A stretch of DNA of 64,000 nt from an uncultured virus (IMG/VR IMGVR_UViG_3300027686_000002) (IMGVR_UViG_3300027686_000002), one strand, 5' to 3'; counted from the stretch's first letter, positions 17,758 through 33,869 are shown. Translations and numbers: made by a program. Notes: generated from the letters alone by a model not told the origin.

Positions 17758-18636
17758 ATGTCGAAAACAATGCAACTTAAGAAAGCTCGTAAAGATCGTA
17801 AAGGCGAGACAATTATTGAAGTACTTCCAAATAACGTTGTAGACAATCCCAAAGAAACAGACGCTCAGATTATTGAACGTATGCGTGAACGTTTCCAAAT
17901 ACTAGACGATATGACACAAGCATCAATTGATGGTGTTGTACGTGGTATGGTTGTAACGGGTCCTCCAGGAGTTGGTAAGTCATATGGTGTTGAACAAGTT
18001 CTAGAAAAGAATAGTTTGTTTGATGTCCTTGCTAACAATAAATTACGTTTTGAAGTTATTAAAGGTGCTAGTAGTGCAATTGGTTTGTACAAAGTACTTT
18101 ACAATAATGCAGACAAAAACAGTGTTCTTGTGTTAGATGATTGTGATACAGTATTGTATGATGAGACATCGCTTAACTTGCTAAAGGCAGCACTTGACTC
18201 ATGTAAGAAGCGTAAGCTATGCTGGAATACAGATAGTGCATTACTACGTAGGGAAGGTATTCCAGATACTTTTGAATTCCAAGGTAGTGTAATTTTTATT
18301 ACTAACCTTAAGTTTGATAATGTACGTGGTAAAATTAAAGATCACTTAGCGGCAATCATGTCACGTTGTCATTACTTAGATCTTACAATGGATACTACAC
18401 GTGAAAAAGTATTACGTTGTAAGCAGATTGTTGCAGATGGCATGCTTAATGAGTATGACTTTACAGCAGAAGAAGAAACAGACATAATGGACTTTATGAT
18501 TAGTAACAAAGAAAAGATGCGTGAAATATCATTGCGTATGGTTACTAAATTAGCAGACTTGAAAAAGAGCTTCGGTTCTGAGAAGTGGAAACGTACTGCA
18601 GAAGTTACATGTATGCGTAGGGTTGCTGTTGTATAG
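17758..18636 (+). CDS. AAA+ ATPase of unknown function
   Basis: GPPGVGKS Walker A, LVLDDCD Walker B, IFITN sensor-1, AIMSRC arginine finger. Confidence 0.85.
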   Translation: MSKTMQLKKARKDRKGETIIEVLPNNVVDNPKETDAQIIERMRERFQILDDMTQASIDGVVRGMVVTGPPGVGKSYGVEQVLEKNSLFDVLANNKLRFEVIKGASSAIGLYKVLYNNADKNSVLVLDDCDTVLYDETSLNLLKAALDSCKKRKLCWNTDSALLRREGIPDTFEFQGSVIFITNLKFDNVRGKIKDHLAAIMSRCHYLDLTMDTTREKVLRCKQIVADGMLNEYDFTAEEETDIMDFMISNKEKMREISLRMVTKLADLKKSFGSEKWKRTAEVTCMRRVAVV

Positions 18637-18717: not shown

Positions 18718-20169
18718 ATGAAATGTAAAATCGTATTAAAAGATGAAGTGAACTGCAAGATCGAAGGTCTTGACGTTAACACTCGAAGAAAATGTGAGAA
18801 GGAATTAAAGTTCTTTCTTCCATACGCATTCCACGTGCCAGCATATAAGTTGGGTAGATGGGATGGATGTCAAAGTTACTTTACAGTAGGTGGTGTAACA
18901 TATACTAACTTACTTGACAAAGTGCTTCCCATTATAATGAATGAAGGTTATGACATTGACATTGAAGACTTAAGAACAAAATATGAACTTGATTTTAATG
19001 TAGTAGATGAATCAACATTTCAACATAAACTGTGGCCTGAAAAACACCAAATGGTAGGACAGCCAGTTACACTACGTGATTATCAGATTGAGATTGTAAA
19101 CAAGTATTTAGAAACTCCACATTGCTTGCAAGAAATTGCAACAGGTGCAGGTAAAACTCTTATTACAGCGGCACTTAGTGAACGTGTAGAAAAGTATGGA
19201 AGGTCAATTGTTATTGTACCAAACAAAGACTTGGTAAAACAAACAGCGGCAGATTATGAGAACTTAGGATTAGATGTTGGCGTGTATTACGGTGACAAAA
19301 AAGAACTAGGCAAAACACATACAATTTGTACGTGGCAGAGTTTGAATAGTATTAAGAAAAGATTTAGAGAAGGACAAAGCGAATTAAGTTTAGCAGAGTT
19401 TGCAGAAGACGTAGTATGTGTGATTGTAGACGAAGTTCATCAAGCTAAAGCAGACGTATTAAAAGAACTATTGACTAAGGAGTTTGCAAAGATTCCTTTA
19501 AGGTGGGGACTAACAGGAACTATACCAAAGGCAGAACATGAAAAGGTTTGCTTACAAGCATGTCTAGGTGAAGTAACTAACAAGCTAAGTGCAAGCACGT
19601 TGCAGGAGATGGATGTATTAAGTCAATGTCATGTTAACGTAGTGCAAATGAAAGAGTTTGCAGTCTACAATAATTATCAAAGTGAGTTAAGTTATTTAAC
19701 TACAGACAAAGCACGTATAAAACATATTAGTGGACTAATTGATAAGATTAGTAAAAGCGGAAACACACTAGTATTAGTAGATCGTATCAAGGGTGGACAA
19801 ATGATTTGTGAAAACCTTCCACATGCAAACTTTGTAAGTGGTGAGATGAAAACTACAACACGTAAAGATCATTATGATGAGATTAATGAAGGAACAAACC
19901 AAATTGTTGTAGCAACATACGGAGTTGCGGCAGTTGGTATTAACATTCCACGTATTTTTAACTTAGTACTAATAGAGCCCGGTAAGAGTTTTGTTAGAGT
20001 AATACAAAGTATTGGACGTGGAATACGTAAAGCTGAAGATAAAGACAATGTTCAAATATGGGACATTACAAGTACAGCAAAATTTAGTAAAAAACACTTA
20101 ACCGAGCGTAAGAAGTTTTATAAAGAAGCCAATTATCCATTCTCTATAGAAAAAGTAGAATGGCAATAA
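18718..20169 (+). CDS. uvsW: SF2 DNA helicase (UvsW-like)
   Basis: LRDYQ, ATGAGKT, VDEVH, GLTGT, GINIP, QSIGRGIR; ATG 18718 preferred to GTG 18703. Confidence 0.9.
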   Translation: MKCKIVLKDEVNCKIEGLDVNTRRKCEKELKFFLPYAFHVPAYKLGRWDGCQSYFTVGGVTYTNLLDKVLPIIMNEGYDIDIEDLRTKYELDFNVVDESTFQHKLWPEKHQMVGQPVTLRDYQIEIVNKYLETPHCLQEIATGAGKTLITAALSERVEKYGRSIVIVPNKDLVKQTAADYENLGLDVGVYYGDKKELGKTHTICTWQSLNSIKKRFREGQSELSLAEFAEDVVCVIVDEVHQAKADVLKELLTKEFAKIPLRWGLTGTIPKAEHEKVCLQACLGEVTNKLSASTLQEMDVLSQCHVNVVQMKEFAVYNNYQSELSYLTTDKARIKHISGLIDKISKSGNTLVLVDRIKGGQMICENLPHANFVSGEMKTTTRKDHYDEINEGTNQIVVATYGVAAVGINIPRIFNLVLIEPGKSFVRVIQSIGRGIRKAEDKDNVQIWDITSTAKFSKKHLTERKKFYKEANYPFSIEKVEWQ

Positions 20170-20188
20170 GCCACACAGGAAATAAAAT

Positions 20189-20689
20189 ATGAAAATTTTA
20201 ACAGTAGAAAACAATACTTACGAACTGGATGAGATTCCAGATCAGGTAGAAGACTTACGATACAGCATTTTAGACTATAGCAACCCAGGACACATTGATT
20301 ACTATTTTATTCCATTAGTGTTCCTAGAAAGTTTTTATGCACCAGCCGCAGTATTAAAAATTGGTGATTACTCAATTACAATGCCATTAGATTGGAGCAT
20401 AGTTATTTGTGATCCATCAGTTGGTGATCCAGAAGTTGTAAGTTTAATGAGTTTGAATGACAGGGGCTTTAGTGTGTTTGCATTTAATCCTATTACAGGA
20501 TTTACACCTAAGTACTTGGACATATCAATAACTAATATTTACACAGATGTAAAATGGTATGCACCTAAGCTAAAGTTTGGACATTTATTAAATGTTCCAT
20601 TGCATGACGGAGCAAATCCACCCTGTGTACTGTTTGTAAAGGAATCAAACAAGTTACCTGAAGTACTTGACATTAGTGAGCTTTGGTAG
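20189..20689 (+). CDS. Hypothetical beta-rich protein, possibly a degenerate Hint-like fold
   Basis: AGGA RBS; AVLKIGDYSITMPLDWSIVI resembles intein block B without TxxH. Confidence 0.45.
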   Translation: MKILTVENNTYELDEIPDQVEDLRYSILDYSNPGHIDYYFIPLVFLESFYAPAAVLKIGDYSITMPLDWSIVICDPSVGDPEVVSLMSLNDRGFSVFAFNPITGFTPKYLDISITNIYTDVKWYAPKLKFGHLLNVPLHDGANPPCVLFVKESNKLPEVLDISELW

Positions 20690-20695
20690 TAAACT

Positions 20696-20917
20696 ATGAA
20701 GACTAGGATACATGTTAATCAGCACGTTGTTAAACGTAATGCTAAGACAGGTGAAAGAGAACCTGTATTAACATGCAAGACTTCTAAGAGTAATACATAT
20801 GGACATGAAGTGTCTATTAAAGGTGATTCGAAAGTTATATACAGTCCAGACAAACCACTATCATGTGGTGCTAAAGTTTGGATAGAAACTGAAGGAGAAG
20901 TAGTAATTGTCAAATAA
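20696..20917 (+). CDS. Small phage hypothetical protein
   Basis: IHVNQHVVKRN..YSPDKPLSCGAKVWIET; tightly packed in the operon. Confidence 0.65.
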   Translation: MKTRIHVNQHVVKRNAKTGEREPVLTCKTSKSNTYGHEVSIKGDSKVIYSPDKPLSCGAKVWIETEGEVVIVK

Positions 20918-21365
20918 ACTAAACATTAAAGAAGAGATGCGAGGTATTGATACCAAGGATAGAGGTTGGTATGACAGTCTTACTGAAGAAGAAAAGAAAA
21001 AGCTAGGCATATGGCTACTAATGCGTTATACTAGTAGTTGTGGTGATAAGATGTTTACTGAGCATTACTTAGAGTGGACTAACGAAGTAGTAAATGTACA
21101 CTTTAACAAGCTACGTAAGCACCCACAGTTGCAACATCAGCTAATGCAGTTAGTTGGACTAGGGAAGACTACATTCCATCCTTGGATTGCACCTGGAAAA
21201 GCAATGAAACAAAGTAAGATACAGAAGTGGGTTATAGAAAACTATAATCATCTGAATGACGATGAAGTAGAAATTTTTATTAGTACTAAAACTAAAGATG
21301 ACTTCAAGGAGTTGTTTGAAGAGTATGGGTACGATAAGAAGCAAATTAAAGAGCTGTTAAAATAA
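20907..21365 (+). CDS. Clamp-loader small-subunit-like protein (gp62-like)
   Basis: Helical pattern IWLLMRYTSS..NEVVN..QHQLM..FHPWIAPGK; TTG start. Confidence 0.4.
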   Translation: MSNKLNIKEEMRGIDTKDRGWYDSLTEEEKKKLGIWLLMRYTSSCGDKMFTEHYLEWTNEVVNVHFNKLRKHPQLQHQLMQLVGLGKTTFHPWIAPGKAMKQSKIQKWVIENYNHLNDDEVEIFISTKTKDDFKELFEEYGYDKKQIKELLK

Positions 21366-22037
21366 ATGTTTAAATGTGAATACTGTTCTAAAACATTCAA
21401 GAAAGAGAATACACTAGTTGTTCATTTATGTGAACAGAAGCGTAGGCACATGCAAAAAGACGAAAAGCATGTACAACTTGGTTTTAGAGGTTATCAGTTA
21501 TTCTATAAAATAGGAACAAATGCAAAGAATGAAAAAAGCTACCAGGAGTTTGCAAAAAGTCAATATTATATTGCGTTCTGTAAGTATGGTTATTATTGTA
21601 GGGACATTGGTATTGATGATGTACCGTCTTACACAACTTGGCTATTAAAGAATTCAATAAGATTAGACCATTGGTGTAGAGATAAGCACTTTGCGGCTTG
21701 GATGAAAGAACGACAAAACAACGAATCGTGTGAAAGAGGTGTTGAGCGTACTGTATTGTTTTTACAGAAGTGGGCAGAAGAAAACAACACAACATATAAT
21801 ACATACTTTCATACAATAGCACCAGCACTTGCAGTATTTCATATATGCAGTGGCAAAATTAGTCCGTGGGTATTGTTTACAAGTACAGCGGCACAAGATT
21901 TAATTGATAACATGAGTGGCGAACAACTAAAAATGATAACAGATTATTTAGATGTTGATTATTGGCAACGTAGAATGAATGTCAATCCACAGGATGGTAG
22001 ATTTGTAACAGAAATTATGGAGCAAATGAAAATATGA
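21366..22037 (+). CDS. Zinc-finger protein (N-terminal CxxC-x12-HxC)
   Basis: FKCEYCSKTFKKENTLVVHLCE; C-terminal SGKISPWVL. Confidence 0.6.
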   Translation: MFKCEYCSKTFKKENTLVVHLCEQKRRHMQKDEKHVQLGFRGYQLFYKIGTNAKNEKSYQEFAKSQYYIAFCKYGYYCRDIGIDDVPSYTTWLLKNSIRLDHWCRDKHFAAWMKERQNNESCERGVERTVLFLQKWAEENNTTYNTYFHTIAPALAVFHICSGKISPWVLFTSTAAQDLIDNMSGEQLKMITDYLDVDYWQRRMNVNPQDGRFVTEIMEQMKI

Positions 22038-22115
22038 TATGGTCATTGATTTATATATTAGCATGTTTTGTATTACCAGTATATATGTTATATAAAATGG
22101 ATAAGGAAGACCCAA

Positions 22116-22700
22116 ATGATAGTTAACACAGATATTGACATTGATGTAGCTAATAGAGATAAGCTATTAAACCTTATTAACGGCACACCTGCAATGATTG
22201 CTCGCGAACATAAGCAAGTAAAACATAACACTGGTGTGTACTTCCATGAAATACCAAGTAATCCTTTTAATGGACTTAGCACAATAGATCATAAAGAAGC
22301 AGAGTCTATGGGTTACTTTAAAATTGATGTTATTAACGTTGGATTATATAAATCTATTGATACTAAGAAGAAGCTAGATGATTTGCTTGCAATGGATCCT
22401 ATGTGGGAGTTACTAGAACATCGAGAAGTAGTAGAACAATGTTTCCACATACATAAGCACTTTGATATTATTAATACAATGAAGCCTACTAGTGTAGAAC
22501 AGCTAGCGGCAGTGCTTGCAGTAATCAGACCGGCGAAGCGTCACTTACTTAATAAGGGTTGGGACGCTATTAACGCTGATGTATGGGTTAAACCTAGCAC
22601 AGATGAATACTTTTTTAAAAAAGCACATGCTCACGCATATGCAGTTGCTATAGTATTGCAATTAAATATGTTAGCTAGTGGTTTTTCTTTACAAGGTTAA
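22116..22700 (+). CDS. Miniature DnaE-like (family C polymerase) catalytic core, 194 aa
   Basis: DIDID, KHNTGVYF, GYFKIDVI, LAVIRPAK and YFFKKAHAHAYA match DnaE motifs in order; AAGGA RBS before ATG 22116. Confidence 0.75.
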   Translation: MIVNTDIDIDVANRDKLLNLINGTPAMIAREHKQVKHNTGVYFHEIPSNPFNGLSTIDHKEAESMGYFKIDVINVGLYKSIDTKKKLDDLLAMDPMWELLEHREVVEQCFHIHKHFDIINTMKPTSVEQLAAVLAVIRPAKRHLLNKGWDAINADVWVKPSTDEYFFKKAHAHAYAVAIVLQLNMLASGFSLQG

Positions 22701-23046
22701 TACTACGTCTTTTAATCCGCTTGGTGATGCTGTTGCTTAGTCTTACTTCTGGTCCTACAATAACTTCCATTTGTTTTACATTAAAACTTTGAATTGCGTA
22801 TTGGTAATTCCATCTATTAAGTAATGCAATGTTGATGGGTAATTTTCTATTCGTTTCCCACCACCATTCTTCGCCTAATTCCAAGAACTTAATTCTCTCT
22901 TGGGTATCAGTTAAGCGATCGTACACATATAAGCTAGCAACATGGTTATCTATATTTTGGATAATCCCAAGGTATTCGTTTCCGGCATATGCTATGACAG
23001 TTAAGAATGGATATTCGTCTAATAGTTTCTGATGTTTTGTTTGCAT
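22675..23046 (-). CDS. Conserved hypothetical protein
   Basis: Natural-looking sequence (WWWETNRKLPINI) with its own TAAATA on the minus strand, 6 nt upstream of ATG. Confidence 0.75.
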   Translation of the reverse strand: MQTKHQKLLDEYPFLTVIAYAGNEYLGIIQNIDNHVASLYVYDRLTDTQERIKFLELGEEWWWETNRKLPINIALLNRWNYQYAIQSFNVKQMEVIVGPEVRLSNSITKRIKRRSINLVKKNH

Positions 23047-23109
23047 TACTTCTATTTATGCTTTCAAAATCCGAACAATTTTGATAAATACAATACAGGA
23101 GTCTAACAC

Positions 23110-23943
23110 ATGTCAAATTACGGAACAACATACAATATTAATCAAGTAGGTGATCTTTACACCTTACAAGACCACGGTTCATCGCCAGGGCTTGGCAAGT
23201 ACGCAAGTGCAAAAGGTACCTCAGTAAACAGTCCGGTTAACTATAGATTTTTAAAACTATTTCGAGGATTTGATACTGAGTTTTTCTTCTTTATAAAGAA
23301 CCAAGATCGCAAGCCAATTATGTTACACGGCACTACTATGCAAGTATCCTTAATTGATCGTAATGATAGATCTACTGTAGTTAGTAAAAAAGCTATTATA
23401 ACAGACTACGATGCAGGTAGTGTTAAAGTAATAATTACAAGTGGAGAGAGTTCTTTATTCTCACAAGGATTTTATGATCTAGTGTTTAGTTACACTACTG
23501 ATCAAGGTTTAGTTGTTCCTATGTTTGCAGACTTAAACATGCGACCTAACTACACTGTTGAAGTAACAGAAGATGGTGATGCATTACCATTAACAACACA
23601 AATTAATTCATCCTTTACAACTTCAGTTGTAGGCGTAGACACATACTATTACAGTAGTGCCATGAAAGCCACAGGATACTATAACAAACCAAACGGATTA
23701 ATTACACTAGCAGTATATGGCACAGGCTATACAGGTAATTTTTGGGTGCAAGGCTCATTAAATGACAATCCAGGCGAAAGCGACTGGTTTAACATAATAT
23801 TAGGCTCGTACACCGAAGAATTTTACCCATATACTAATCACACTGGAATAGATCCATGGACATTCCGTACAAACGTAAAATTAATCAGAACAAAACACAC
23901 ATCACCAACAGGAACACTTGACAAAGTAGTAATAAGAGTGTAA
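23110..23943 (+). CDS. Probable virion structural protein (Ig/BppU-like beta domains)
   Basis: Late promoter, AGGAG RBS, Thr/Gly/aromatic beta-rich sequence. Confidence 0.5.
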   Translation: MSNYGTTYNINQVGDLYTLQDHGSSPGLGKYASAKGTSVNSPVNYRFLKLFRGFDTEFFFFIKNQDRKPIMLHGTTMQVSLIDRNDRSTVVSKKAIITDYDAGSVKVIITSGESSLFSQGFYDLVFSYTTDQGLVVPMFADLNMRPNYTVEVTEDGDALPLTTQINSSFTTSVVGVDTYYYSSAMKATGYYNKPNGLITLAVYGTGYTGNFWVQGSLNDNPGESDWFNIILGSYTEEFYPYTNHTGIDPWTFRTNVKLIRTKHTSPTGTLDKVVIRV

Positions 23944-23946
23944 TAT
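23918..23946 (+). promoter_or_regulatory. Sigma70 promoter, probable leaderless primase transcript
   Basis: TTGACA-17 nt-TAATAT; ATG begins 7 nt after the -10. Confidence 0.65.
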
Positions 23947-23952
23947 ACATGT

Positions 23953-24966
23953 ATGACTTTGATGAACGACTACGTAAGAACTCTGGTACCGGCTAACTGG
24001 CGATCAAGCCCTAGTGGATGGATATCTGGCAATTGCCCAATGTGTACTAGAAATGGTCAAGCACGACCTGATACTAAAGGCAGAGGTGGATTCTTATTTG
24101 ACGTAGAAAAGTTTCAATATAATTGCTTTAATTGCACATTTAAAACTGGATGGGCACCACAGGGCAAAGTAACATCTAGATTAAAACAATTACTAACTAC
24201 ATTAGGTGCAGATGAGAATGATATTAATCGTATTCAACTTGAATTGTTACGTGAACAAGATGTAGCAACTTTATTAATAAAAACAGAGAAACGTAAAAAC
24301 TTAATTATTGATTGGGACTTAAAAGAGCTGCCAGAAGATACTAAACCATTTATGCTACATGACGAGCCTACAGCAGATTGGTCGGAAGCAGTAGAATATT
24401 TAACTAGACGTGGGTTTGATGTAACTGATCCTAGATTCATGTATAGTAATAGTAAAACAAATGGTAGAGTCAACAAGCGTTTCATATTACCATTTACATA
24501 TAAAAATAAAGTAGTAGGATACACAGCAAGATGGGCAGGAGATAGTATTCCAGATGGTATGCCCAAGTACTACAATCAGCAACCTAAGAAAGACTTTGTG
24601 TATGGGTTAGATAGACAGACTCCAGACAAGCATGTTGTTATTGTAACTGAAGGACAACTTGATGCAATAGTAACTGATGGGTGTGCAATAGGTAGTAATA
24701 ATATAAATGATGAACAAGCAGATATACTACACAGCTTACAGAAACATATTATAATATTACCAGACGCAGATGATGCAGGAAAGTTAATGTGTAAGGCAGC
24801 AATAAAGCATGGGTGGAGTGTAGCATTTCCAGAATGGAAAGATTGCAAAGATGCCGCAGATGCCTTGACAAAATACGGAAGATTGTATACAATAAAGAGT
24901 ATATTAAATAGTGCAGAAAGTAATGCAACTAAAATTGAATTAATTATGAGAAAGTATTGCAAATGA
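23953..24966 (+). CDS. DNA primase (T4 gp61-like)
   Basis: Zn ribbon CPMC..CFNC; TOPRIM VTEGQLD, PDADDAG, KDAAD. Confidence 0.9.
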   Translation: MTLMNDYVRTLVPANWRSSPSGWISGNCPMCTRNGQARPDTKGRGGFLFDVEKFQYNCFNCTFKTGWAPQGKVTSRLKQLLTTLGADENDINRIQLELLREQDVATLLIKTEKRKNLIIDWDLKELPEDTKPFMLHDEPTADWSEAVEYLTRRGFDVTDPRFMYSNSKTNGRVNKRFILPFTYKNKVVGYTARWAGDSIPDGMPKYYNQQPKKDFVYGLDRQTPDKHVVIVTEGQLDAIVTDGCAIGSNNINDEQADILHSLQKHIIILPDADDAGKLMCKAAIKHGWSVAFPEWKDCKDAADALTKYGRLYTIKSILNSAESNATKIELIMRKYCK

Positions 24967-32444: not shown

Positions 32445-33055
32445 GTGTAGGATTGAACGCAGCACAGGCAAGGGCAAAAGCATCACAAGATATGATTGTG
32501 TTTAATGAAACACAGGCTATCATGAAGCAAGTAATCACTGAAAGTTCTTCAGGCAATTTCGAAGCGTATGTAGATGATACTACAACAATGACACTGTCAA
32601 CTCCAAGTGCAAATAAAATTGGAACAATAAACACACCAACTGTCTCTAATGGAGACACTGTTATTATAAATGCACAGACAATCACACTAGGTACTACAGG
32701 AACCTCACTTAATGCAGTAGTTAGTGATATTAATGATGCAGGAGTAGCTGGAATTACAGCTAGTAAAGATGCAGGATATTTGGTATTAACTATAGAAGCA
32801 TCAGCAAACGCATGGAATTATATAATTGGTGCAGGCACAGCAAATACTTCACTAGGTATTACTGCTGGCACGTACAGTATAACACATCCAACTAGTGTTA
32901 GCTATTTTAATGTATGGCAAGGTACTGCAATTGACAGAGGATTGCAAAACCAAATGGAATCAGTAATTAAGCATTTTCAAAACTTAGGTTATAAGTTAGA
33001 GAGACTTACTAATTCTACTACTAGTAATACATTGAAATGGTACATTTACTGGTAA
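32441..33055 (+). CDS. Probable virion structural protein
   Basis: Thr/Gly-rich beta domain (GDTVIINAQTITL..INDAGVAGITAS). Confidence 0.5.
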   Translation: MSVGLNAAQARAKASQDMIVFNETQAIMKQVITESSSGNFEAYVDDTTTMTLSTPSANKIGTINTPTVSNGDTVIINAQTITLGTTGTSLNAVVSDINDAGVAGITASKDAGYLVLTIEASANAWNYIIGAGTANTSLGITAGTYSITHPTSVSYFNVWQGTAIDRGLQNQMESVIKHFQNLGYKLERLTNSTTSNTLKWYIYW

Positions 33056-33065
33056 GGAGTTACTA

Positions 33066-33869
33066 TTGAAAATAGCCTTTATAGGTGATAGCTTCTCAGC
33101 TTATCATCAAGATGGACAGTATAAAAATAGCTGGACATATCAACTTTCCCAACAATTCCCACAACACGAATATCATAATTATGCTTGCGGCGGCAGAGGA
33201 TATGACTATTATCAATGGTGTTTACTTGATGCAAAAATACAACATGATGTAGACCTTATTTTTACTAATAGAACATTTAATCATAGAGTAGGTAAGCTAT
33301 GGGGCAATCAAACGTTTAGGTTTGAAATTGATAAAATTGGTCAAGATAAACATATGTACTTTGCTAATACAGGAGCCGAATATAACAATAGAAGATATGA
33401 AGGTTTTGAAATATCTGATAACTACACATGTTGGAACCCAAATAAAGAAATATGGTATAGTGCTGGATTACACGAAAGAGTTAATATTATGTCTAATCCT
33501 AAAAAAGTACATCCTATGGAAGCCGGGTTTCTATTTGGATTGCAAGATGAGAGCAGTTCAGAGCATAAGCAAAGTTATAATGATCAATGGTACGATAATA
33601 TGCATAATTTGTACAACTTTAAGCATATAATAAAACTTGAATTATTGCATATGTCCGGTAATTTGCCCAGTGCGACAAAAGCAATGTATGCCGCACATGG
33701 AATTAACAAAGGTGGTTTAAAACCTTTTAAAGAAGAACAACTAGAATGTTTTAAAGCAGGATTAATAGTATCTCCAACAGATGATCACTGGAGTAGACAA
33801 GGTAACATGTGGGCATTAAAAAATTATATATTAACTAAAGAAACCATTGACATCCTCTCAGAAGTATAG
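33066..33869 (+). CDS. SGNH/GDSL-like hydrolase family protein
   Basis: IAFIGDSFS block I, NYACGGRG block II, DDHWS block V; TTG start after AAGGAG. Confidence 0.65.
   Translation: MKIAFIGDSFSAYHQDGQYKNSWTYQLSQQFPQHEYHNYACGGRGYDYYQWCLLDAKIQHDVDLIFTNRTFNHRVGKLWGNQTFRFEIDKIGQDKHMYFANTGAEYNNRRYEGFEISDNYTCWNPNKEIWYSAGLHERVNIMSNPKKVHPMEAGFLFGLQDESSSEHKQSYNDQWYDNMHNLYNFKHIIKLELLHMSGNLPSATKAMYAAHGINKGGLKPFKEEQLECFKAGLIVSPTDDHWSRQGNMWALKNYILTKETIDILSEV

Follow-up and report, generated by a model that had tools for sequence, protein, structure and literature searches.

In a 64,000-nucleotide stretch of DNA from an uncultured virus (IMG/VR IMGVR_UViG_3300027686_000002), referred to below as the window, an open reading frame (ORF) on the plus strand at 22116..22700 (ATG at 22116, stop codon at 22698-22700) encodes a protein of 194 amino acids (aa). 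This ORF is a genuine, selected, and drastically shortened derivative of the catalytic region of DnaE, the alpha subunit of DNA polymerase III (Pol III), and its metal site is intact. Very probably, it encodes the C-terminal unit (C-unit) of the "minimal DNA polymerase III alpha" that T4-related jumbo phages (group 2.2) encode in two genes. The C-unit is not a self-sufficient enzyme. It is homologous and structurally equivalent to residues ~397 to 788 of DnaE, and in relatives the palm half that is missing from it is encoded by a second gene, the N-unit. The split minimal Pol III alpha has already been published, and the window holds another ortholog of it, not a new system. Our analysis makes modest additions to it: a residue-level and structural mapping of the deletions, evidence of purifying selection, a C-before-N gene order in 4/4 cases, and three clusters of natural fusions.

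Catalytic residues and DnaE motifs of the C-unit

Five short motifs follow one another along the protein: DIDID (residues 6 to 10), KHNTG (36 to 40), FKIDV (68 to 72), IRPAK (137 to 141), and FKKAH (167 to 171). An earlier note on this DNA, made from the sequence alone, had singled out the ORF as carrying DnaE motifs in DnaE order, and both its coordinates and the motif order held up. The same note had put the spacers between the motifs at about 25 residues each. Counted on the sequence, this is correct for three of the four (24 to 25 residues) and wrong for the remaining one, which is 50 residues long.

The coding sequence (22116..22700, plus strand, 194 aa and a stop codon) specifies the portion of the palm that binds Mg2+, along with a reduced fingers/template-binding subdomain. 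The codons of D6-I-D8-I-D10 (22131..22145), all on the same strand as those that follow, encode the first two catalytic carboxylates and are equivalent to the PDFDVD strand of DnaE. The third carboxylate is encoded within K69-I-D71 (22320..22328), where counting along the alignment leads from K69 and D71 to K553 and D555 of Escherichia coli alpha. D401, D403, and D555 are the catalytic carboxylates of the E. coli enzyme. Two fingers motifs lie farther downstream. R138-P139-A-K141 (22527..22538) is equivalent to ALFRPG of DnaE and aligns to E. coli alpha 639 to 641, and F167-K-K-A-H171 (22614..22628) is equivalent to FNKSH and aligns to 756 to 760.

At least 7,925 proteins of ~194 aa were identified as C-unit homologs, which is a lower bound given that 8,000 candidates of 106 to 340 aa were scored. 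An exhaustive HMMER search yielded 405 C-unit clusters at 50% identity. Residue conservation was evaluated in an alignment, A2, of P0001 and 89 of 150 listed cluster representatives, consisting of near-full-length rows of 179 to 219 aa; the 61 rows that were omitted were mostly fragments, in addition to the longer P0181 and P0185. D6, D8, K69, D71, and P139 were invariant in all 90 sequences. The three catalytic aspartates described in the note as retained (D6, D8, and D71) are consequently kept in 90/90 homologs, and their loss was not seen. Nearly invariant were H37 and R138 (89/90 each) as well as D10, G40, and H171 (88/90 each), followed by K168 (83/90), K141 (82/90), and K169 (71/90, with R in 16).

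Relationship to DnaE and PolC

With the single 194-aa sequence, no family was matched in Pfam or NCBIfam, and the sole match in a sequence search of the PDB was irrelevant (E 0.64). The protein did match the profile phrog_11778 ("DNA polymerase") with an E value of 2.3e-62, residues 4 to 187 aligning with profile positions 6 to 192 of 197. A profile built from A2 gave 11 matches at E <=10 among PDB sequences, 9 of which are Pol III alpha (from E. coli, Thermus, and M. tuberculosis; best E 4.9e-6). In the profile alignment, family positions 54 to 140 correspond to E. coli alpha 538 to 641 and positions 152 to 180 to 740 to 769. The two fingers motifs fall into register within these blocks, positions 137 to 140 on E. 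coli 638 to 641 and 166 to 171 on 755 to 760.

The same relationship was recovered from structure. An AlphaFold2 model calculated with A2 had a mean predicted local distance difference test score (pLDDT) of 95.9 and a predicted TM-score (pTM) of 0.88. Ranks 1 to 16 of a Foldseek search with this model were all C-family polymerases. When the Foldseek list was realigned with VIA-align, 15 C-family entries had Z scores of 10.2 to 6.5 with root mean square deviations of 3.4 to 4.2 Å, and the next entry had a Z score of 3.7. Between 188 and 193 of the 194 C-unit residues were aligned to DnaE or PolC, the matched ranges being 397 to 788 in E. coli, 458 to 846 in Thermus (Taq), and 968 to 1303 in Geobacillus PolC. 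A VIA comparison with 48,161 representative chains, which was independent of Foldseek, retrieved seven chains at Z >=5, all of them C-family, and the next chain scored 4.3. The DnaE palm fold, for which the note had proposed structure prediction as a check, was found in this way with Z up to 10.2. The resemblance of the 194-aa protein to DnaE is not due to chance.

The alignments allowed the deletions to be mapped onto the domains of E. coli alpha. Residue 1 of the C-unit model aligns near E. coli alpha 397, and a DnaE region of ~390 residues is represented by 194. The thumb region comprises ~44 residues in the C-unit versus ~133 between the DxD strand and E. coli 538, and a simple hairpin (strands 24 to 30 and 33 to 42) takes the place of the thumb in the model. 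In the fingers, ~12 residues stand for the ~99 between E. coli 641 and 740, that is, ~87 are deleted. The C-unit ends at the equivalent of E. coli ~788, and everything beyond is absent. A Pfam scan of the 194-aa protein found neither a PHP domain nor any other Pfam domain. The absence of PHP, clamp-binding, HhH, and OB domains, as asserted in the note, is confirmed by Pfam, profile, and structural alignment alike.

DnaE and PolC (PDB 2hnh, 2hpi, 5lew, and 3f2b) share with the C-unit the Pol-beta-type palm, including its three carboxylates, as well as both fingers motifs, RP(G/A)K and F(N/K)KSH, in identical order. Unlike these enzymes, the C-unit has its N-terminal palm half on another polypeptide, carries a hairpin instead of a thumb, and is without PHP, clamp-binding, HhH, OB, and tau-binding regions.

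The missing palm half, the N-unit family, and natural fusions

Five residues of the ORF precede the DxD strand. Since the C-unit starts at this strand (~E. coli 397), it is without the strand-GRGS-helix half of the palm that precedes it, and since this is the strand-GS-helix element that binds the nucleoside triphosphate, the C-unit has no complete active site alone. A motif scan found no GRGS motif in the window in any frame. The preference expressed in the earlier note for a streamlined enzyme over a simply split gene is not supported: the GRGS palm half is absent, and relatives encode it separately in a gene of ~170 aa that belongs to PF07733.

In phage 121Q, this gene is gp56 (172 aa, annotated "DNA polymerase III alpha subunit"), which matches PF07733 positions 16 to 95 and lies 31 kb downstream of the C-unit gene gp16. 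A separate small PF07733 locus away from the C-unit gene was present in 2/2 phages, 121Q and Atu_ph07. The N-unit (gp56-type) family comprises 51 proteins, 50 of them with PF07733, and is characterized by an invariant G-x-GRGSS and an E-F-L close to the C-terminal end. In DnaE, the GRGSS...EFL segment directly precedes the PDFDVD strand. The N-units terminate 0 to 2 residues past EFLK, EFLR, or EFLH, and the C-unit homologs begin 1 to 17 residues ahead of the DIDID motif. Split inteins were considered and ruled out on the basis of these ends: neither unit leaves space for half an intein, which excludes protein splicing.

Natural fusions of the two units also exist but are rare. P0185, P0323, and P0324 are metagenomic proteins of 375 to 376 aa in which N-unit and C-unit are joined in DnaE order; they represent the three fused clusters among 16 matches of 206 to 657 aa. 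In P0185 (375 aa), GVGRGSS (residues 146 to 152) and KEFIK (176 to 180) are followed by DFDID (191 to 195), and a single PF07733 match spans the junction (residues 97 to 207 versus model positions 12 to 121, E 4.8e-16). An AlphaFold2 model of P0185 (pLDDT 93.3, pTM 0.90) had low confidence in the linker only. It aligned to DnaE and PolC with Z scores of 21.8 to 12.2 over 299 to 352 residues. The next-best matches were Pol-beta-type nucleotidyltransferases (NTases), the CCA-adding enzyme and Cid1, at Z <=3.9, which aligned to residues ~102 to 279 across the junction. An alternative alignment, A4, was dropped after nine distant N-unit rows were found to be misaligned onto the C-half.

The three fusion proteins are 78 to 81% identical to one another and originate from contigs of 2.4 to 5.9 kb. 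No locus of the fused form was found in the viral contigs or JGI metagenome contigs scanned with P0185. In the P0185 model, the first ~90 N-unit residues lie ahead of the PF07733 match, and on the DnaE side its VIA alignments start at residues 10 to 15, within the PHP region. These ~90 residues may be a PHP remnant, or the alignment there may be loose. Two longer proteins, P0336 and P0337 (540 to 551 aa), carry PHP and PF07733 positions 2 to 233 but no other part of DnaE, and are either gene calls that were cut short or a further short form of DnaE.

Distribution and location of the N-unit gene

The N-unit and C-unit genes co-occur across phage genera. A tblastn search with the C-unit returned 96 phage records, 95 of which cover >=80% of the query, all at <60% identity; the closest isolate matches were PA5oct-like phages at 47.8% identity. 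Among the matches listed, all C-unit phage records were jumbo phages, such as 121Q, RaK2-like phages, Atu_ph07, and SCTP-2. A corresponding tblastn search with the N-unit of the viral contig G002 returned 119 phage records, including weak matches to the full-length dnaE of Bacillus and Clostridium phages. Tallied by host genus, C-unit and N-unit records numbered 34 and 34 for Escherichia, 11 and 11 for Pseudomonas, 11 and 10 for Klebsiella, 8 and 8 for Erwinia, 8 and 8 for Salmonella, 4 and 4 for Xanthomonas, and 4 and 4 for Yersinia. At the nucleotide level, a megablast search of window positions 20000 to 24000 against phage records found no near-identical DNA.

G002 (205 kb) is the closest large relative contig. 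Its C-unit, located at ~150 kb, is 80% identical to that of the window, and its N-unit (168 aa, 32,875-33,381, PF07733 E 1.1e-8) is on the same strand. Following the coding strand of G002 from the C-unit, a family B polymerase is reached ~97 kb on and the N-unit ~19 kb further. In a second relative contig, G003, the C-unit is followed ~95 kb later by the family B polymerase, which is itself ~10 kb from the end of the contig. The place where an N-unit would be expected falls outside G003, which explains why none was found there. These distances suggest that the N-unit partner of the window's gene would lie some 100 to 120 kb downstream, beyond the window, and that an N-unit is probably present in the window's phage.

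Family B polymerases were detected in two of five relative contigs, G002 and G003 (open frames of 897 and 899 aa), and are also found in 121Q and Atu_ph07. The search for a separate full replicase elsewhere in the genome, suggested in the note, thus has a positive answer in the relatives; among the window ORFs scanned, there was no family B polymerase.

The C-unit gene was upstream of the N-unit gene and on the same strand in 4/4 linear records or contigs (121Q, Hallingskeid, Pseudomonas phage sp. 30-2, and G002). The distance between the two genes is 29 to 44 kb in 121Q, Hallingskeid, and a PA5oct-like phage and ~117 kb in G002. This C-before-N order is the reverse of the order in DnaE and in the natural fusions, so that simple read-through of neighboring genes cannot account for the fusions.

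Genomic neighborhood and selection

The gene content of the window is that of a T4-related jumbo myophage. Tail sheath, tail tube, and large terminase proteins are encoded, and the replication genes include those for a gp32-like single-stranded DNA-binding protein, UvsX, UvsY, a UvsW-type helicase, a primase, and a DnaB-type helicase. There are also genes for ribonucleotide reductase and an ATP-dependent ligase.

Synteny was examined in 80 viral-contig loci with C-unit relatives at 61 to 100% identity. On the 5' side, the fixed order is UvsW-type helicase, ORF 20189, sometimes ORF 20696, ORF 20907, the zinc-finger ORF 21366, and the C-unit gene; on the 3' side, it is a small convergent ORF, a virion protein, primase, and DnaB. 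The C-unit gene lies within the replication gene block in 80/80 loci, and the arrangement is annotated identically in 121Q, Atu_ph07, and PA5oct. Ratios of nonsynonymous to synonymous substitution rates (dN/dS) were calculated pairwise by the Nei-Gojobori method for pairs with 0.05 < dS < 1.5. The median for the C-unit gene was 0.130 (854 pairs), compared with 0.144 for DnaB, 0.178 for primase, and 0.085 for the UvsW-type helicase. None of the 81 C-unit sequences analyzed contained an internal stop. Selection and synteny, both named in the note as points to check, accordingly indicate purifying selection (0.13) and an order that is fixed in 80 loci, and relaxed selection was not seen.

The note had further drawn attention to the two genes upstream of the C-unit gene. 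The supposed gp62-like gene, ORF 20907-21365 (plus strand), is present in 77/80 loci; contrary to that label, it matched no clamp-loader family, only phrog_11758 of unknown function (E 3.4e-25, covering the C-terminal part of a 263-position profile) and sub-threshold Pfam entries. The assignment of the second gene as a zinc-finger gene was right. ORF 21366-22037 (plus strand, 223 aa) encodes a protein with an N-terminal C2H2 zinc finger (PF12171 E 9.5e-5; phrog_11058), stands directly upstream of the C-unit gene in 79/80 loci, and has only viral "C2H2-type domain" clusters as Atlas matches.

Downstream, ORF 22675-23046 (minus strand, 123 aa, phrog_11637 of unknown function) converges on the C-unit gene with a 26-nt overlap of the 3' ends. 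It was found in 80/80 relative loci with a dN/dS of 0.087, and its Atlas match is a viral hypothetical cluster (score 0.76). Tail-to-tail counterparts are annotated as 121Q gp17, Atu_ph07 gp073, and PA5oct EST35_0221. A functional link of this ORF to the mini-polymerase is possible. Farther upstream, 121Q gp9 (L002 805-1623), located between UvsY and the UvsW-type helicase and annotated "DNA polymerase exonuclease subunit," is an RNase_T/DnaQ-type exonuclease (PF00929 E 6.7e-15). The corresponding place in the window, 17758-18636 (plus strand), is occupied by an AAA-type ATPase (phrog_1250; PF13191 E 4.3e-7, below the cut-off), and a DnaQ-type exonuclease did not turn up among the ORFs scanned in the window.

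Within the C-unit gene itself, translation from ATG 22116 is favored over the in-frame TTG 22068 because a Shine-Dalgarno-like AAGGAAG (22103..22109, plus strand), read in the sequence, is positioned 6 nt upstream of the ATG. An overprinted gene inside 22116-22700 was considered and rejected, as the alternative-frame open lengths were reached by 19 to 70% of 2,000 synonymous-codon shuffles. The antisense open frames of 58 to 75 codons within the gene, such as 22088-22282 (minus strand), likewise gave no signal against the shuffles.

Proposed mechanism and alternative explanations

We propose that N-unit and C-unit associate noncovalently and would thereby rebuild one Pol-beta-type NTase site. 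The N-unit would hold and position the triphosphate of the incoming deoxynucleoside triphosphate (dNTP), and the C-unit would provide the two-metal center (D6, D8, and D71) together with contacts to template and dNTP. Its basic fingers residues R138, K141, K168/K169, and H171 would be part of the proposed site. Such a heterodimer would be a small DNA polymerase operating beside the family B replicase. It would probably be distributive and non-proofreading, because it is without thumb, clamp-binding motif, HhH, OB, and PHP/exonuclease domains. Primer extension, gap filling, and repair are candidate roles. The fixed place of the C-unit gene between the UvsW-type helicase and primase/DnaB fits such a role in replication or repair.

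Several observations weigh against assigning the ORF to a two-part polymerase. The partner gene was not found in the window, either by tblastn with 121Q gp56 or by an unfiltered hmmsearch of six-frame stop-to-stop segments of >=40 aa (best E 0.17). The N-unit is also absent from the nearest record, G001 (90 kb, 25% complete), and was present in only one of five large relative contigs, all of which are 34 to 60% complete. The Foldseek scores of the 194-aa model were modest (best E 8.8e-4, query-normalized TM-score 0.40 to 0.48), and the alignment behind the P0185 model, A5, has the first ~10 residues misplaced in 62 C-unit rows. An experimental test of any family member was not found in open-access PMC papers or bioRxiv preprints, the literature to which our searches refer throughout.

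These points bear differently on the other explanations of the data. The failure to find an N-unit within the window would be expected if the 194-aa protein were a complete, self-sufficient mini C-family polymerase or NTase, possibly aided by the products of ORFs 20907 and 21366. All three catalytic aspartates and the fingers motifs are indeed on one polypeptide, and the two upstream genes are strictly syntenic (77/80 and 79/80). However, the model starts at DnaE ~397 and the GRGS strand-helix element is missing, whereas the N-unit co-occurs with the C-unit across phage genera and in G002, and natural N+C fusions join them. The neighboring genes have no polymerase-related family either, ORF 20907 belonging to phrog_11758 of unknown function and ORF 21366 to the C2H2 proteins of phrog_11058. 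We therefore regard self-sufficiency as highly improbable. Decay has even less in its favor. A functionless fragment of a captured bacterial dnaE might be anticipated to resemble the protein in two respects: its length is about half that of the matching DnaE region, and searches with the single sequence retrieve no family. Yet the dN/dS is 0.13, the catalytic residues are invariant in 90/90 sequences, 0/81 sequences have an internal stop, thousands of homologs keep the same length of ~194 aa, the fold is predicted with confidence, and synteny is kept from marine relatives to 121Q, PA5oct, and Atu_ph07. The probability of this explanation is close to negligible.

A more substantial alternative, although still an unlikely one, is that the two-part protein is functional but not a templated polymerase, acting as an NTase on other substrates (tailing, nucleotide signaling, or counter-defense) or as a mainly structural component of the replisome. 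It is without the thumb, clamp-binding, HhH, and OB elements by which full DnaE holds the primer-template, and a full family B polymerase is already available to these phages. Many roles other than that of a polymerase are filled by Pol-beta-type NTases, the next structural matches are the CCA-adding enzyme and Cid1, and biochemical data on any member were not found in the literature searched. What speaks for a polymerase is that conservation beyond the metal site concerns the fingers motifs of DnaE (R138, P139, K168/K169, and H171) and not those of other NTase families. The fused model reaches a Z of about 20 against DnaE and <=3.9 against other NTases, and the gene is in the replication block in 80/80 loci. 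Taking the polymerase reading one step further, we consider it a real possibility, if somewhat short of probable, that an active heterodimer of ~360 aa is the smallest C-family polymerase and a dedicated second polymerase in a replisome based on family B. In that role, it would extend RNA primers, fill lagging-strand gaps, or take part in repair, and separate expression of the two genes would give the phage a switch for polymerase activity.

Relation to published work and significance

The minimal Pol III alpha was described by Iyer, Anantharaman, Krishnan, Burroughs, and Aravind (2021, Viruses 13:63). That paper presents the family as a minimal Pol III alpha split into two units and found in group 2.2 jumbo phages, which encode a family B polymerase as well; its authors suggest that the minimal enzyme may cooperate with the family B enzyme in the synthesis of one strand or in repair, and that it may model or preserve the ancestral Pol III alpha (PMC7824862). 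The published C-units are 121Q gp16, Atu_ph07 gp074, and PA5oct EST35_0220. The window's protein has the same family, size, and neighborhood, and is 36 to 48% identical to these counterparts. Nothing essential is different: the window's copy comes from an uncultured lineage, and isolate proteins are <48% identical to it. The host-like dnaE genes of phages, for example, of Bacillus and Clostridium phages, are members of the same superfamily and were weakly matched by the N-unit query (E ~1e-4). According to Iyer et al., host-like phage DnaE proteins are PHP-containing single-chain replicases (PMC7824862), whereas the window's protein is the minimal split form, which in relatives accompanies a family B polymerase.

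Other reports touch on these phages. The MIJ3 paper gives a split family B polymerase with an intein for the PA5oct lineage (PMC6892783), and the annotations of Sharanji phage include "DNA polymerase III DnaE" (PMC11895373). In a 2026 review on jumbo phages, a term search did not find the phrase "DNA polymerase" (PMC13282480). The C-unit gene is not mentioned in the main text of the PA5oct omics paper, nor did a term search of two of its supplementary files find it. Full-text searches revealed nothing relevant that follows up on Iyer et al.

The natural fusions could provide biochemists with single-chain constructs. Should the two-gene enzyme prove active, it would set the minimal catalytic unit for the family of bacterial replicative polymerases, and C-family and B-family polymerases would work together in one phage replisome, an idea that has been in print since 2021.

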